In this document: positions 29,021 to 57,621 of the stretch, piece after piece
Layout of the letters: each line of letters starts with the position of its first letter
How positions within the stretch are numbered: position 1 is the first letter of the stretch
Virus record (IMG/VR): IMGVR_UViG_3300005841_000939
DNA length: 64,000 bases
From: a virus
Lineage: Duplodnaviria > Caudoviricetes
Direction: 5' to 3' (one strand)
Notes under the pieces: model-generated
Told to the model about the DNA's origin: nothing
What the model saw: the letters and a program-made list of their open reading frames with translations, nothing else
Databases searched by the model: none
Position numbers and translations under genes: made by a program

Positions 29021-29097
29021 TGGTGGGAAGTCAGGGACTCGAACCCTGGACCTGGGGTTTATGAGACCCTTGCTCTAACCGACTGAGCTAACTTCCC
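29021..29097 (-). tRNA. tRNA with CAT anticodon (elongator Met or Ile2/lysidine)
   Basis: GGGAAGT/ACTTCCC acceptor, loop CTCATAA, TTCGAGT, encoded CCA. Confidence 0.9.
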
Positions 29098-37927: not shown

Positions 37928-39000
37928 CATCGAAGACGATGATTCGCTAATAAGCTCGAAAGAGTAAAAAGGTGGTCATCTGACATCGGGCTCTTTGATG
38001 CATAGGGTGCAGACAGAACGGATGAGTCTAAACCAGTAATGCCGGGTACGGTTGATCTAACGGTAACTCCATTTAACGTGTGGAAGCCCAAAGATACAAA
38101 GGCCATGCATGAACGGTGTTCAAAGCCGAACATAAGATAAGCCGGAAACTTCTGCAACACCGATTCCTGGGATAGCAAAAAAACATTTGCCACCCATATA
38201 CCCAGGAAAGAAATGGGTTCACATATCTAGGAAGGGGCGGATAGACCTTCATCCCTGGCTCTATGTGAAACATTAACATTGTGGTGGCAGCAGGCGCAGT
38301 TGGTGAAAGCCTATTGCGATTGAAAACCGAGACTCTGATTGATGCGTGGAGGGTAAAGGGCCGTAGATCCGCATCAATAAATTGACTAGTGGCATCTAGT
38401 CAGCATCTTATCCCATGCCAGGGATGTTGCTCCACGTTTGAAAATTCCTGTGGAGGACGATATAGCGGGTGTTAATAACACTCAAAATGTGCAGCGGAAT
38501 GCTGCATATATGCGTATCGGTGCAAGAGTAAGTCAATGCGCGTTATAGCAACGTCGCCTAGGTTTTGAGACAGGATCAGCCCAATAAAGGGGTTGGTCCT
38601 GTTAGTTTTTCCTTGCGGCCTTACCTGTTCTGGATACATTAAGGCATATGGCTGTGAGCATCAGGAAAATATCTGATTTTCATATGTTCCTGGAGATTCC
38701 AGGGCATAAGCTCATGCTTGTCACTGTCTTCGGACGCATGAGCATTTCCAATAAGCCAATGCCTCCAACCCATTCATATCAGATTATGCGAAGGAATAAT
38801 CATAATAGATCCTAATTACATCTATACATTTATTTCTGAGGCTGGCAATCGTGGCGCAGGAAATAGTGTTGATGCAGCAATCAGGTCGGCACTTGGTGTT
38901 GACGCTCCTAAAAACCTGAAATATGGAAAATATGAATTGAGCAAGCCTCCAAGTACATATTTTAGGTCTTGTGATATTTTCCAGGTGCTTCACTCTGAAG
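37928..39000 (+). ncRNA. candidate large ornate structured ncRNA (~1.07 kb)
   Basis: No credible ORF; more than 10 stems, nested helices, GAAA and UUCG tetraloops; own promoter. Confidence 0.65.
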
Positions 39001-39144
39001 AAGAAGTCCTCATGGGGAAATTATACGTCTGAATTTTTGTTGCATTGTCTAGAAGCATGATATAGGATCCTGACAGTCCTGTTATCTTCTTGACTCAAAG
39101 ATGTCTAGGGTATATGAATAGTATTAAGCCCTAAAAGCATCCAT

Positions 39145-49736: not shown

Positions 49737-50042
49737 ATGGCCAAGATCAAGACCAACGACATGAGCATCAACCCTGATGCAATGCCCAAGAGCAACACCC
49801 AGGAATCGTCTGCCAACGGAAAGGCAAAGCGTGTTCGTGAACGCAAGGTCCTGCCCAAGAATCTGCGTTCGCATCGTCGTGGCCACCGGGCGCGTGCCAA
49901 TCGCATCTACGTCCAGACCAACAAGGCCGCCATCGTCTACATCCCTGCTGCCGAAGCTGATAAGCTGGTAGCTGAAGGTTCGGGCAAGTACATTGCTCGC
50001 CAGAAGGCCAAGGCTATCCTCGCCAAGAAGAAGGCTGCGTAA
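49737..50042 (+). CDS. very basic hypothetical protein
   Basis: Arg/Lys-rich; CAGGA RBS. Confidence 0.7.
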   Translation: MAKIKTNDMSINPDAMPKSNTQESSANGKAKRVRERKVLPKNLRSHRRGHRARANRIYVQTNKAAIVYIPAAEADKLVAEGSGKYIARQKAKAILAKKKAA

Positions 50043-50351
50043 ATGCGCAAAGCATATACTCTTTCTGAATTGATTGGGTGCCTTTCAATTATCATCTTTG
50101 TGGTCGTATTGATCGCAGTGATGATCAACTGGATGTTTCATACCCAATGGTTCGCTCGGCATTGGGGCGGCTCGTATACCATGGAACTGCCAGCCAATGA
50201 AAAGGTTGTGACAGTTTCATGGAAGGATTCCAATCTCTGGATCCTGACTCGTCCCATGAAAAAGGATGAGGTTGCTGAAACCTTTACACTGCATGAGAGT
50301 TCCAACTTCGGAGTTCTCCAGGGTACTGTTGTTATCACAGAGAAAAAATAA
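50043..50351 (+). CDS. membrane-anchored phage protein with prepilin-like N-terminus
   Basis: MRKAYTLSELI + TM; body WGG..ELP..SWKDSNLWILTRPM. Confidence 0.7.
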   Translation: MRKAYTLSELIGCLSIIIFVVVLIAVMINWMFHTQWFARHWGGSYTMELPANEKVVTVSWKDSNLWILTRPMKKDEVAETFTLHESSNFGVLQGTVVITEKK

Positions 50352-50393
50352 GAATTGACATGTAAAGGATATCTATATACTCTTTACATATAT

Positions 50394-50469
<76 letters not shown>

Positions 50470-50542
50470 TATTCAAATGCTCTTTAGAGACAACGGATCA
50501 TACATTTGCAAGTAATTTAGGAGAGCAAATTCTCCTCAGCTC

Positions 50543-50631
50543 GGGCGAGTACCGGACTGTTCTTATAAAGCAGATTACCGTAATCGGTGGCGATAGTATC
50601 AATGTGGGTTCGAGTCCCACCTTGCCCACCA
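50543..50631 (+). ncRNA. D-armless tRNA-like RNA with TAT anticodon-type loop and long variable region
   Basis: GGGCGAG/CTTGCCC acceptor, GTGGG-TTCGAGT-CCCAC T-arm, ACCA; stem CTGTT/AGCAG with loop CTTATAA. Confidence 0.6.
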
Positions 50632-50665
50632 AAAAGGCGTTGATTTACTTCACTTGTATGATAAA

Positions 50666-50752
50666 CGGCTTGTGGCGGAATTGGCAGACGCGGGGGACTT
50701 AAAATCCCCTCCCAGCAATGGGGTGCGGGTTCGAGTCCCGCCGGGCCGACCA
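50666..50752 (+). tRNA. tRNA-Leu(TAA)
   Basis: Class II cloverleaf, loop CTTAAAA, CCA. Confidence 0.93.
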
Positions 50753-50832
50753 AATTAATAGAACCCATGTCAATGACAGGCATGGGTATTTTTACCTTGT
50801 ATCTGAACCTTATTTGCTATTATAAAGTCATC

Positions 50833-51300
50833 ATGAACGAACCAATCACCCTGACCAATCCTCACGATGGCGAAAAATGGACTTCGGGCAAGCGTGGTCG
50901 CAAGCCGAAGTGGGTGACCGAAATGTTGGAAGGCAAAGTGCCAACCAAAATCGAAGAAGTGGTGAAGGTGGCAAAGGAACCATCTGAGAAGAAGGTGGCT
51001 GCTGAAAAGCCGGTTGAAGTGAAAGTGGAGCCGACTTCCTTCTGCTGGTGGTACAAAGGTGAGGATGATGACAGTGGCGTGAACTATGGCGCCAAGGTTC
51101 GCTGCTTCGTCCATGCGAAAAACTTCAAGGATGCTCTCGCTCTGCTCTCCGCAACGTTCAGCACTCCCGTTACGCAATATGAATTGCAAACGAAGTGGAA
51201 GGTTGGTAGTGATGCCGCTCTGACCCATAACGGGAGGTTTGGCGTCTGGAACTACATCAACGGCCAGTGGGTTGAACGCGAAGCCAAGAAACGCGCTTGA
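50833..51300 (+). CDS. protein with N-terminal H-NS-like DNA-binding motif
   Basis: NPHDGEKWTSGKRGRKPKW resembles H-NS C-terminal consensus. Confidence 0.6.
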   Translation: MNEPITLTNPHDGEKWTSGKRGRKPKWVTEMLEGKVPTKIEEVVKVAKEPSEKKVAAEKPVEVKVEPTSFCWWYKGEDDDSGVNYGAKVRCFVHAKNFKDALALLSATFSTPVTQYELQTKWKVGSDAALTHNGRFGVWNYINGQWVEREAKKRA

Positions 51301-51332
51301 CATCGCAGTATCAATGACTTATCAATGAGGCC

Positions 51333-51581
51333 ATGAAGACATCTGCACTCGCTTTGACCCTTATCGCAAATAATGTGAAAGAGGACGAAGCGAATGCGAT
51401 GCTTTATGTGCTTGGTCATGATGGACATAAGGCATTGATGTCGCGGATCCCATTTTCCGTAATAGAAGATGGTAAGATTATCCGCAAGTGGAAGGTACAA
51501 GCGTATCTTCCTCAACATAAAGCACAGAAAATAAAGAAGGCAGTGAGGAACGCATGTTTGCCAGCATTAAGCGTTTCGTAA
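51333..51581 (+). CDS. hypothetical protein
   Basis: ORF. Confidence 0.6.
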   Translation: MKTSALALTLIANNVKEDEANAMLYVLGHDGHKALMSRIPFSVIEDGKIIRKWKVQAYLPQHKAQKIKKAVRNACLPALSVS

Positions 51582-53970: not shown

Positions 53971-54142
53971 CAGGTCTCCATTCTAAGAACGCTTGGCATG
54001 TGTCAACAATACCTTCTTAACATGCATTTAAGCCTAGTCAAGAATTACCTTAGTATCTGATTAGACCTAAAAATGTTTATTGCTTTTTCACCTTAAGTCT
54101 TTACAGTCATCAACATACCAATCATACAGAAAGCGAATAATC

Positions 54143-56488
54143 ATGCTTGTAGCAACCAAGTCGGAACAAGTCGGTCGCCATGGGGAAATGAAAGTTTCCA
54201 CTCTGACCATCGATAATCCTGGCATGATGCTTGCGCACATGTTTGATACGATCTATACCAACAAGGCAAAAATCGTTGTTCAGGAGATCGCTTGCAATTG
54301 TCGCGATGCTCACAGAGAAGTAGGAAAGGCTGATGTTCCGATTACCATCAAGCTGCCGAACAAGCTTGACACTTCTTTGCAGTTCATTGATGAGGGTCCA
54401 GGCCTTTCTCCCCAACGAATCGATGCGATATACAACAGTGTCGGTGCATCTACCAAGCGCGGCAGCAACGATCAAACTGGCGGGTTTGGTATCGGATCAA
54501 AAACTCCTTGGTCCCTGACCAACATGTTCCTGGTCAAGACAACTGCCTGGGAAGGAGAAGGTGAAAATCGCGAATTGGTATATCGCGAATACACCATGCT
54601 CCGTGAAGGATTATTTTTCACTTGCAATCAAACTGGTGATCCTGAAGTGAAGGACCCTGCTCTGAATAAGAGCGGCACCATTATTGAAATGCAACTGGAG
54701 GAAAAGGAATGGCAGAATATTGAATCAGAAATTCAGAAAATCTTTATCTCATGGGATCCCAAGCCAAATATCCTTGGTTATTCTAGCGGTGAATGGGTTT
54801 GGAAAACCAGACTTGATCCGCTGTTTGAGGGAAAAGGTTGGAAAGTTTACAATGGTCAGGCTTATTACAATCACACGCATGTCTTCATGGACAATATTCC
54901 ATATCCGTTGGATTGGAGCGCAATGGAAACTGCGTTTGTCAGCTTGATGACTGATGTTTCAATTCCTGGAACTGCCACGGAAGAAATGAATGACATCGTC
55001 ATCAATAAGAACAATGATCCGATGACAAGTGCAAGAATTCGCACGTTGTGGCATCAGGCAGCAATCCTGCAAAATGTAACTTGCGGATTGTTCTTCAAGA
55101 CGGGTGAACTGGATCCCGCATTGAATCGTGAATCGTTGCAGTATACCCCTCAGACTGTTCGGCGCATTGTGGCTCGCATGTTGGCTGCAACTCAAATCAT
55201 CCTCACCACATATCAGAAAAAGGTTGAAGCTGCACCAACGTATGTTGCTGCATTGACCATGTGGAAGGAGTTGGCCAGCAACGTTATCAGAAATCTTATT
55301 TCAGGTTCGCGTGCCAACTGGCGGGGACTGCCTCTGAATACTGCCATGACGATTCACTTCCCTGAATCAGTCATTGTAAACAAAGTGATGCTCCGCAGTA
55401 ATTATAGCCGTCGCGCCAAGTTTTCAATGCGGCAAGAGGAAAGCATCAAACTGGAGGGAATTGATCAAAAGAAGCAAATTTTCGTCAACACTGGCTACAA
55501 CGAACGCAATGTACGCCATTACATGGAGCAAAATAACTTTGGTGGAAATAGCTATGACAGGGAATGCTTATATTTCCTGAGCTTCAAGCCAGGGTTCTCT
55601 GATCGTACTCTTCCACTCCCTGACATTGATGCTAAGGTCATGGAAGAAAGGTTCTTCAAGTCTGATCTATGGGTCGGTTTGGAACATGGTGGCAACAGTG
55701 ATCAGTTCCCGAAAAGGCCGATTATCAGAAATTCAGCAACGGGAAGTCGCGGACCGAAGAAGGATCCCCTCGCTGCCAATATATGGAATTCTGGTTTGAA
55801 GAAATTCCATGCATCTGATGTGATGCTGTCAGTTGACGAGGAAGATGAATCTGAGGATGCCGATCAAAAGGACATCGTCTATGTCTTGACTTTCCGAAAG
55901 GACTGCAACGAATTCAATGGCGACCAATTGAATACGTTGGAACATGCATTGAACATTTCCATCTATGGCGTTTCGGAACGCTTGAAGCATCGCATCCCTG
56001 ATCATTGGGTATCACTTGGGGAAAAGGCACGTGAATGGTTGTCTCAACAGCCTTTGGATTCAACTATCGCCGAATACATTCGCAAGCGCAATATCAATTC
56101 GGTGATGATCAATGCTTGCAAGGATATTTCTGCATCATTTGCAAGCATCATGGCAGATCCGGATTTGGAACAACTTGTCACTGCACCCGATTGGATTGAA
56201 ATGGCCCGTCTCTTCAAGACGACATTCAATTCAGAAACTCAATTGGATACGACTCCTGAATCCAATATCCTCAAGAAAATCAAGGACGTCAACAAAGTCC
56301 TGAGCAATCCACTGACGATTCCCGATATGCCTGAAGCAGAAGAAACCTCTCCTGAAGCAGAAGCTTTGAAAGCTCTGGTTGAAAAGTATTACTTGGTGAG
56401 GCAGGCTGCTGCAAGCTATACGCTTGATGCAACAGTGCTCAATCGCATCATTCCAGACCTGGCTATCTTCATTAATGCCAAAGGATAA
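54143..56488 (+). CDS. rIIA: rIIA-like protein
   Basis: IYTNK..VQEIACNCRDAH, D.GPGL, STK..SN.QTGGFGIGSK.P (GHKL-type N-terminus); adjacent to rIIB. Confidence 0.85.
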   Translation: MLVATKSEQVGRHGEMKVSTLTIDNPGMMLAHMFDTIYTNKAKIVVQEIACNCRDAHREVGKADVPITIKLPNKLDTSLQFIDEGPGLSPQRIDAIYNSVGASTKRGSNDQTGGFGIGSKTPWSLTNMFLVKTTAWEGEGENRELVYREYTMLREGLFFTCNQTGDPEVKDPALNKSGTIIEMQLEEKEWQNIESEIQKIFISWDPKPNILGYSSGEWVWKTRLDPLFEGKGWKVYNGQAYYNHTHVFMDNIPYPLDWSAMETAFVSLMTDVSIPGTATEEMNDIVINKNNDPMTSARIRTLWHQAAILQNVTCGLFFKTGELDPALNRESLQYTPQTVRRIVARMLAATQIILTTYQKKVEAAPTYVAALTMWKELASNVIRNLISGSRANWRGLPLNTAMTIHFPESVIVNKVMLRSNYSRRAKFSMRQEESIKLEGIDQKKQIFVNTGYNERNVRHYMEQNNFGGNSYDRECLYFLSFKPGFSDRTLPLPDIDAKVMEERFFKSDLWVGLEHGGNSDQFPKRPIIRNSATGSRGPKKDPLAANIWNSGLKKFHASDVMLSVDEEDESEDADQKDIVYVLTFRKDCNEFNGDQLNTLEHALNISIYGVSERLKHRIPDHWVSLGEKAREWLSQQPLDSTIAEYIRKRNINSVMINACKDISASFASIMADPDLEQLVTAPDWIEMARLFKTTFNSETQLDTTPESNILKKIKDVNKVLSNPLTIPDMPEAEETSPEAEALKALVEKYYLVRQAAASYTLDATVLNRIIPDLAIFINAKG

Positions 56489-56555: not shown

Positions 56556-57488
56556 ATGTCAAAGAACAAGCGCAAAATCATCCTCACTGAGAACCAGGTG
56601 GCACTGACCATCAAGGGGCAGACGAGAACCATCAACAAGAAACATCCTGCATTCAAAAAGGTGCTGGACCTCATTCACGTCGGTGGCAGTGATGAAGACC
56701 TGTTGAAGGCCATCGAACCCGTCAAAGCCATCAACACCAGCAAGAAGGCTGCGAATTGGGGCATCAAGGTGGTGGATGGTTCCATCAAAATGCAGGAAGA
56801 GGTGCTGCCCGCTGATATTGCGGATACCATTCTCGAATTCAAAGCTGCAAACGAACCGTTCGAACCGCTGGTGAAGTTCTACGAGAACTGCAAGCTGAAT
56901 CCTGATGTGCGTGTCAAGGAAGGTCTCTTCCGGTTCTTGAAGGCTCATCGCTTCCCTCTGACGGAAGATGGTTGCTTCATCGGCTATCGCAAAGTCGCAA
57001 ACGACTTCAAGGACTTCTATACTGGCAAGCTCGACTTCTCCCCCGGCCAGACTGTGACCTTGGATCGCAGTCTTTGCGATTCGGACAATAACAATACGTG
57101 CTCCCGTGGTTTGCACGTCGCCAACTTCCGCTATGCGAAGGAAGTCTATCATCCTGGCTCCGGCAAGATGATCAACGTCAAGATCAATCCCCGTGATGTG
57201 GTCGCATTCCCAACGGACTATCATTTCGAGAAAATGCGCGTGTGCGCAATGTACGTCATCGGCGAGAATGGTACCAGCGAAGCTGATGCCCAAGAATATC
57301 AGGAGCTGTTCAAGCAGCAGAATCCTGATTGGAAAAAGAATGACAAGGACGTTGACGAAGCTGAGGAAGAAGACATCGAAACTGGTGCTGTCAGTGTCAA
57401 GGGCAATCCCCAGGATGCTGTCGAAATTCCGGTCTGGATGTCACAGAAGCGTGACGCTCGCGGTCGCTTCGGCAAGGTCAAGAAGTAA
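56556..57488 (+). CDS. rIIB: rIIB-like protein
   Basis: LFRFL..LTEDGCFIGYRKV..CSRGLHVA..KINPRDVVAFP.D..KMRVC. Confidence 0.9.
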   Translation: MSKNKRKIILTENQVALTIKGQTRTINKKHPAFKKVLDLIHVGGSDEDLLKAIEPVKAINTSKKAANWGIKVVDGSIKMQEEVLPADIADTILEFKAANEPFEPLVKFYENCKLNPDVRVKEGLFRFLKAHRFPLTEDGCFIGYRKVANDFKDFYTGKLDFSPGQTVTLDRSLCDSDNNNTCSRGLHVANFRYAKEVYHPGSGKMINVKINPRDVVAFPTDYHFEKMRVCAMYVIGENGTSEADAQEYQELFKQQNPDWKKNDKDVDEAEEEDIETGAVSVKGNPQDAVEIPVWMSQKRDARGRFGKVKK

Positions 57489-57545: not shown

Positions 57546-57621
57546 GTACCTGTAGCTCAGTCGGAAGAGCGACAACCTTCTAAGTTGTTGGTCGTAGGTT
57601 CGAGTCCTACCAGGTATACCA
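57546..57621 (+). tRNA. tRNA-Arg(TCT)
   Basis: Canonical cloverleaf, loop CTTCTAA, CCA. Confidence 0.95.

Follow-up and report, generated by a model that had tools for sequence, protein, structure and literature searches.

We analysed a 64,000-nucleotide (nt) stretch of DNA (the window) from the virus record IMGVR_UViG_3300005841_000939 (Duplodnaviria; Caudoviricetes). Between two canonical transfer RNA (tRNA) genes, tRNA-Lys and tRNA-Leu, both found by ARAGORN and by Rfam, the plus strand carries an 89-nt element (50543-50631) that has the ends of a tRNA and an anticodon loop displaying UAU, but has no D hairpin (Table 1). A preliminary description of the locus had called this element a D-armless tRNA-like RNA. 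Direct reading of positions 49800-51400 reproduced every feature listed there: the acceptor stem, the T arm, the encoded ACCA, the UAU loop, the stretch of 7 nt in the place of a D arm, and the region of about 30 nt (30 nt by our count) separating the anticodon arm from the T arm. As is argued below, the element belongs to a phage-associated family with a rewired core, in which the strands of a D-stem-like helix flank the anticodon arm, and its most plausible role is that of a tRNA for AUA codons.

Standard tools see the element poorly. ARAGORN reported four tRNAs in the window (Met-CAU, Lys-UUU, Leu-UAA and Arg-UCU) and made no call for the element; the default Rfam run, at the gathering threshold, likewise gave no match. 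When sensitive filters were used, the Rfam tRNA model RF00005 scored 38.7 bits (E-value 9e-7; gathering score 29), in an alignment that leaves out 11 positions of the D arm and inserts 27 nt. The covariance model of the family (R1) gave the element 82.8 bits (E-value 1.5e-22), while the canonical tRNAs of the window scored at most 32 bits; the UAU element is above chance level. Compared with a cloverleaf, it has the acceptor stem, a T arm with a loop of the GUUCRANYC type and an NCCA end; the D hairpin of a cloverleaf, which would lie 5′ to the anticodon arm from nt 10 to nt 25, is missing. All features that characterize the family were found in it: the helix formed by nt 11-13 with the bases before UAA, U8-A9, the C11-G pair, the UAA..GG motif and the high R1 score. 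We rejected the reading of the element as a transfer-messenger RNA (tmRNA)-like or Ala acceptor, in agreement with the preliminary description, because there is no G3-U70 pair (pair 3-70 is G-C) and the model score is weak (tmRNA_permuted, 13.3 bits, E-value 1.4); ARAGORN found no tmRNA.

Searches for close relatives of the window were negative in INPHARED by DNA and in IMG/VR with the downstream open reading frame (ORF), an exact 25-mer or rIIA as the query. Relatives were reached only through rIIA homologues, 36-38% identical, in a large protein collection, which led to three contigs from metagenomes, L001-L003, all syntenic with the window. Both L001 and L002 have the element at the corresponding place between the same tRNAs, 96% and 85% identical to the window copy; flanking spacers of these contigs are 52-66% identical to those of the window and tRNA-Leu is 71-78% identical. 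L001 shows a U-G to G-U swap at one anticodon-stem pair, and L002 has double changes in the acceptor stem and in the D-stem-like helix. Judged by these comparisons, the UAU element is a real conserved gene, as conserved as the neighbouring canonical tRNAs; the identity values together with the compensatory changes show that it is not decaying. The preliminary description had proposed to look in related phages for homologues with compensatory changes, and such homologues do exist, with changes of this kind in the acceptor, anticodon and D-like helices.

A pattern derived from the conserved 3′ half of the element retrieved 47 IMG/VR loci, nearly all with the rewired layout; further patterns and model R1 extended the set to at least 91 distinct sequences. 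Family members reside nearly always on phage contigs. Applied to 185,579 bacterial and archaeal species, each represented by a single genome, the same pattern gave just two true members, both on contigs of metagenome-assembled genomes. There are two forms, one short (∼77-80 nt) and one long (88-97 nt), the latter marked by an additional small hairpin, and the window element belongs to the long one. Members that had escaped annotation are present in cultured phages as well: Agrobacterium phage Atu_ph04, Stenotrophomonas phage SOVA965 and Sinorhizobium phage Phosso. Their positions are, respectively, ∼112818-112896 in MF403007.1, ∼38979-39056 in PP079418.1 and ∼450936-451025 in PV764938.1. These Arg members share with the element the UA, the C11-G pair and the UAA..GG motif followed by the T arm, and the Phosso member, a long one, has its extra hairpin too; they differ in having anticodon UCU with GGA, whereas the window element has UAU with GGU and A73. 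On none of the family members checked did ARAGORN make a call. A looser UAU pattern was discarded: its 117 loci were chance matches, and none scored with the family model. Full-text literature searches, with the coverage of subscription journals mostly outside their range, returned no description of the rewired layout, and no example from a phage or virus is given in a review of natural non-canonical tRNAs from 2020 (PMC7609411). The rewired family is a large phage-associated one, apparently without a published description or name.

To characterize the fold, we compared three candidate structures on an alignment (A1) of 39 distinct members, nine of the long type and 30 of the short type. The outer parts of the molecule behave as they do in a tRNA-like structure: compensatory changes occur at 7/7 pairs of the acceptor stem (98.9% of cells paired), 5/5 pairs of the anticodon stem covary, and the T stem is 100% paired with two covarying pairs. 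In the core, nt 11-13, which follow U8-A9-Y10, find their partners past the anticodon arm, in the three nucleotides that precede an invariant UAA, and they are paired in 100% of the members. The first of these pairs is C-G only; the second is G-C, U-A or A-U; the third is G-C, C-G, A-U or U-A. Double changes number 12 and 10 at the two pairs that vary. Sliding the partners by 1-3 columns brought pairing for the whole structure to 40-46%. Among 91 members we counted at least 12 distinct complementary triplet pairs at this helix, e.g. CGG/CCG in the window and CAU/AUG in L002. The UAA is followed in the D-loop-like segment by a conserved GG.

The element is not truly D-armless: the covariation shows a D-stem-like helix spanning the anticodon arm. 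The preliminary description was right about the missing D hairpin; the linker of 7 nt, however, is no unpaired connector but pairs across the anticodon arm through nt 11-13. From the tests of candidate folds on A1, the chain runs from the acceptor strand through U8-A9 and the 5′ strand of the D stem to the anticodon arm, and on through the 3′ strand of the D stem, the D-loop-like segment (UAA, GG), the extra hairpin of the long forms and the T arm to the second acceptor strand. Two other structural readings of the core were tried and rejected. Pairing of UACCG (50550-50554) with CGGUG (50585-50589) reaches 80% in the long types, lacks compensatory changes and is in competition with the helix that covariation supports. 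A reading of the small hairpin as a second anticodon-type hairpin displaying GAU was dropped because the long-type UCU (Arg) members have the same GAUAG motif; at locus L024 a longer hairpin stands in place of the GAU-NNN-AUC hairpin.

Table 1. Features of the UAU element and of its surroundings (positions in the window)
Feature	Position	Strand	Basis or remark
CAU tRNA, called Met by ARAGORN	29021-29097	-	ARAGORN; A27-C43 mismatch
tRNA-Lys(UUU), canonical, upstream neighbour	50394-50469	+	ARAGORN and Rfam
Acceptor stem, 5′ strand GGGCGAG	50543-50549	+	pairs with CUUGCCC (50621-50627), 7 base pairs (bp) including one G-U
U8, A9, C10	50550-50552	+	U8 and A9 invariant in 39/39 aligned members
7-nt stretch UACCGGA in D-arm position	50550-50556	+	direct reading
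D-stem-like helix, 5′ strand CGG	50553-50555	+	partner CCG (50578-50580)
Anticodon arm, stem CUGUU/AGCAG	50557-50561 with 50569-50573	+	one U-G; direct reading
Anticodon loop CUUAUAA	50562-50568	+	anticodon UAU 50564-50566; direct reading
AUUA, 4 unpaired nt between anticodon stem and D-stem-like 3′ strand	50574-50577	+	alignment A1
D-stem-like helix, 3′ strand CCG	50578-50580	+	covariation
D-loop-like segment UAAUCGGUGGC	50581-50591	+	contains invariant UAA, conserved GG (50586-50587) and 'position-20-like' U (50588)
Small extra hairpin GAU-AGU-AUC, mark of the long subtype	50592-50600	+	GAU/AUC in 9/9 long-type members, loops variable
T arm GUGGG-UUCGAGU-CCCAC	50604-50620	+	direct reading
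Acceptor stem, 3′ strand CUUGCCC	50621-50627	+	followed by discriminator A73 (50628) and encoded CCA, end 50631; direct reading
tRNA-Leu(UAA), canonical, downstream neighbour	50666-50752	+	ARAGORN and Rfam
Terminator-like hairpin and T run closing the three-gene RNA cluster	50763-50797	+	consensus match only
P-loop kinase, 145 amino acids	52973-53410		matches AAA_33, KTI12 and a PHROG polynucleotide-kinase family
rIIA	54080-56488		PHROGs
rIIB	56556-57488		PHROGs
tRNA-Arg(UCU), canonical	57546-57621		ARAGORN and Rfam

The anticodons of the family fall into two groups only, Arg (UCU in 39 members, CCU in two and ACG in one) and UAU (45 members), and the base that follows the conserved GG changes with the group: it is A in 42/42 Arg-anticodon members and U in 43/45 UAU members. 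This contrast is present in both the short and the long scaffolds. At locus L179 a CCU member with GGA lies beside a UAU member with GGU, the two scaffolds being similar. Discriminator A73 was found in 11/11 UAU members tallied; Arg members have A, G or U. The CCU and ACG variants are located at L179:2526-2605, L038:8418-8494 and L046:8010-8092, all with GGA after the UAA motif.

In Escherichia coli, arginine identity depends mainly on A20, C35 and A/G73, and isoleucine identity on A73, the anticodon loop and D-loop positions including D20 and D21 (PMC9976931). When the element is compared with these sets, the N-A-U anticodon, A37, A38 and A73 of isoleucine are present; with respect to arginine, it has A35 instead of C35 and U instead of A after the GG. 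The base after the GG probably stands in for position 20. That this base and anticodon base 35 switch jointly is what one would expect from selection by aminoacyl-tRNA synthetases.

The settings of some members speak for decoding. The array at L179 has 20 canonical tRNAs, including Ile(GAU) and Arg(ACG, CCG, UCU), and its two rewired genes supply the missing UAU and CCU; at L185 a rewired UAU gene is 1-2 nt from tRNA-Val and tRNA-Thr, packed like the other members of the array. As to the window, its four genes of tRNA type close to rIIA decode AAA, AUA, UUA and AGA, and the observation made earlier that the other anticodons of this group (UUU, UAA, UCU) also serve A-ending codons held. In the first 23 kb of the window these four codons make up 73%, 23%, 33% and 40% of the codons for their own amino acids, in the order given above, versus 38%, 9%, 7% and 9% in the rest of the window. 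The GC content of the window is sharply split, ∼0.33 at 1-23000 and ∼0.44 at 23000-62000.

The window is part of a large lytic (jumbo) phage; its own rIIA was found on a metagenome contig of 379,560 bp, and DNA of the tRNA cluster occurs in two rhizosphere metagenomes, from which the window may come. A scan for sigma-70 promoters upstream of tRNA-Lys found none. A 6-bp hairpin (50519-50536, plus strand; single-sequence fold) ends ∼6 nt upstream of the element, and is kept with altered pairs in the relatives: GGAGA/UCUCC in the window, GGGGAA/UUCCCC in L001 (∼717-735) and GGGAA/UUCCC in L002 (∼460-477). Such a hairpin may be a processing or regulatory signal. The kinase gene listed in Table 1 is kept beside rIIA in L001-L003; no ligase or phosphatase domain was seen nearby.

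Other unusual tRNA-type sequences were observed in the same contigs and loci. In L002, 57 nt past the stop codon of rIIB, there is a short rewired tRNA-Arg(UCU) (L002:8856-8934), while in the matching slot the window (Table 1) and L001 (9138-9213) have a canonical tRNA-Arg(UCU). Since the position after rIIB is shared, the rewired gene looks like a replacement of canonical tRNA-Arg at one slot, which again speaks for decoding. The tRNA-Lys(UUU) of L002 (290-419) has an insert of ∼54-57 nt inside the anticodon loop; excision would restore CUUUUAA. The whole gene folds well (z -3.3), the insert making hairpins of its own, and this could be an intron-like element or a gene disruption. An odd tRNA-like sequence at L002:12133-12204 scores 45.5 bits with the Rfam tRNA model; its anticodon loop is enlarged, its T loop is not of the canonical kind, and ARAGORN made no call there. 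The minus strand of L024 (4566-4744) has two rewired genes in tandem, 3 nt apart, a short one with UCU and a long-type one of 97 nt with UAU; ARAGORN made no tRNA call in the whole 8.9-kb locus. Sequences of 77 nt at L018:2729-2805 and L044:678-754 have an acceptor stem and a T arm, with no recognizable anticodon arm and no CCA; they share the GGUGG and AUCAAUG motifs. Finally, L171, L184 and L187 seem to be members of a different Ile(UAU) family.

Taking these observations together, we suggest that the element is a working elongator tRNA for AUA, with anticodon UAU, that would be charged by the isoleucyl-tRNA synthetase of the host. We assign to this reading, which is drawn from sequence comparison, a probability of roughly 0.6. 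The preliminary description had offered three options, an atypical AUA decoder, a decoy and a decaying tRNA; the decoder is the best supported of them, by the identity signals, the array context and the codon demand. The gene would be transcribed together with tRNA-Lys and tRNA-Leu and processed as they are; an L shape would result from docking of the GG segment on the T loop; the RNA would be charged with isoleucine, and it would provide AUA decoding for the AT-rich genes of the phage, with no need for a lysidine-modified CAU tRNA.

A number of points weigh against this proposal. Nearest-neighbour energies for the window copy favour the local hairpin (-27.8 kcal/mol) over the rewired fold (-22.6 kcal/mol), and the conserved D-stem-like helix is only 3 bp long. 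The switch between A and U after the GG could be structural rather than a matter of identity; the U of the long type might pair with A9. Minor determinants of E. coli isoleucine identity are partially present: C4-G69 is found, while pair 29-41 is G-C, not C-G. A U34 that is unmodified or xm5U-modified might read AUG too, and if the CAU tRNA of the window is a tRNA-Ile of the lysidine type, the UAU gene would be partly redundant. Also, the analysis spans 64 kb of a genome of ∼380 kb, and there is no RNA run among the listed sequencing runs that contain the cluster.

The energy difference bears directly on the view that the element is a truly D-armless tRNA, mitochondrial-like, with an unpaired connector of 7 nt and a variable region of two hairpins. 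The hairpin UUACCG-UAAU-CGGUGG, on which that view depends, is indeed in the minimum-energy fold of both the window copy and L001. Yet it is limited to the nine long members of A1, where it is 72% paired with no compensatory change; in L002 it is reduced to 2 bp while the rewired helix is kept there via two double changes; and the 30 short-type members, which are without the 3′ strand of the hairpin, retain the pairing of the linker. We consider a true D-armless structure unlikely. Of the two hairpins of the preliminary description, GAU-AGU-AUC is conserved in the long types, and the larger one is a possible structure in the window copy but not a conserved fold. One may also think of a tRNA with the elongator role and a different identity, i.e. 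mischarged with arginine by virtue of its Arg-type scaffold or carrying some other amino acid and recoding AUA. In core sequence the element is in fact closest to UCU members of the long type, for example that of Sinorhizobium phage Phosso; still, both main arginine determinants have been altered jointly (C35 is replaced by A, and the A that follows the GG by U; set from PMC9976931), and the ORFs of the window read normally with the standard code, so that a change of identity of this sort seems quite improbable.

Two explanations deny the element a role in translation. A decoy or sponge would be a tRNA-shaped RNA that absorbs a tRNA-targeting nuclease, a defence sensor or a synthetase of the host, and to this we give a low probability. 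The non-canonical layout missed by standard tools, the near confinement of the family to phages (47 IMG/VR loci as compared with the two true members among the 185,579 species' genomes) and the polynucleotide-kinase-like gene nearby would all agree with a decoy; however, a mimic of an anticodon loop needs neither a covarying 7-bp acceptor stem nor A73 or CCA, and it has no reason to switch a position-20-like base together with the anticodon, to fill the missing anticodons of large tRNA arrays or to replace a canonical tRNA-Arg in the same slot. The evidence fits a decoy less well than a decoder. Pseudogene decay, which could be suspected from the lack of both an ARAGORN call and a D-arm hairpin, is very improbable, and refuted as far as sequences can tell, given 96% and 85% identity between phages whose rIIA proteins are ∼37% identical, the compensatory changes and the same layout in 91 distinct sequences; the two syntenic relatives and dozens of phage contigs share this layout, and none of them shows a normal D arm.

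On a broader scale, one could speculate that a tRNA topology other than the cloverleaf arose in phages and was spread widely by them, one that functions in ordinary bacterial translation and has the anticodon arm nested within the D stem, with the D loop moved behind it. Identity would then have been switched between Arg and Ile at least twice via two bases, position 35 and the base after the GG, and the rewiring may serve to evade host tRNA-targeting defences or the dependence on modifications such as lysidine. We offer this scenario tentatively, as a possibility that we believe in less than in its being false.

How the element relates to known tRNAs can be described as follows. With a canonical tRNA (RF00005) it shares the 7-bp acceptor stem, U8, the 5-bp anticodon stem, the 7-nt loop with U33 and A37, the GUUCGANUC T loop, the discriminator, the CCA and the setting in a tRNA cluster; it differs in that the strands of its D stem flank the anticodon arm and the GG loop comes after the 3′ strand, with no D hairpin. 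Mycoplasma mobile tRNA-Ile2 (Taniguchi et al. 2013, PMC3575796) has in common with the element UAU for AUA, A73, A37, A38 and a decoding independent of lysidine, the last being a prediction for the element; such TilS-independent tRNA-Ile(UAU) species are ordinary cellular cloverleafs, whereas the window element is phage-borne and rewired. Mitochondrial D-armless tRNAs are similar in having no D hairpin and a short stretch from the acceptor to the anticodon arm. Their connector is flexible and unpaired and their T arm reduced, while in the element the connector is paired, the T arm canonical, the CCA encoded and the setting that of bacterial translation. Because its connector is paired and its T arm canonical, the element is not of the mitochondrial type.

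To our knowledge, all elongator tRNAs outside mitochondria are taken to be cloverleafs. If the rewired family works in translation, its different chain topology would represent a new natural design of tRNA, and RNase P, synthetases, EF-Tu and the bacterial ribosome would have to accept such a design. It would follow, too, that counts of tRNAs in phage genomes are systematically too low, members being unannotated even in cultured phages. The paired switch of base 35 and the base after the GG would be a directly testable change of tRNA identity, and the family may provide a scaffold for tRNA engineering. For the phage considered here, the gene would complete a set of four decoders for the rare A-ending codons AAA, AUA, UUA and AGA, a set that matches its AT-rich genes.
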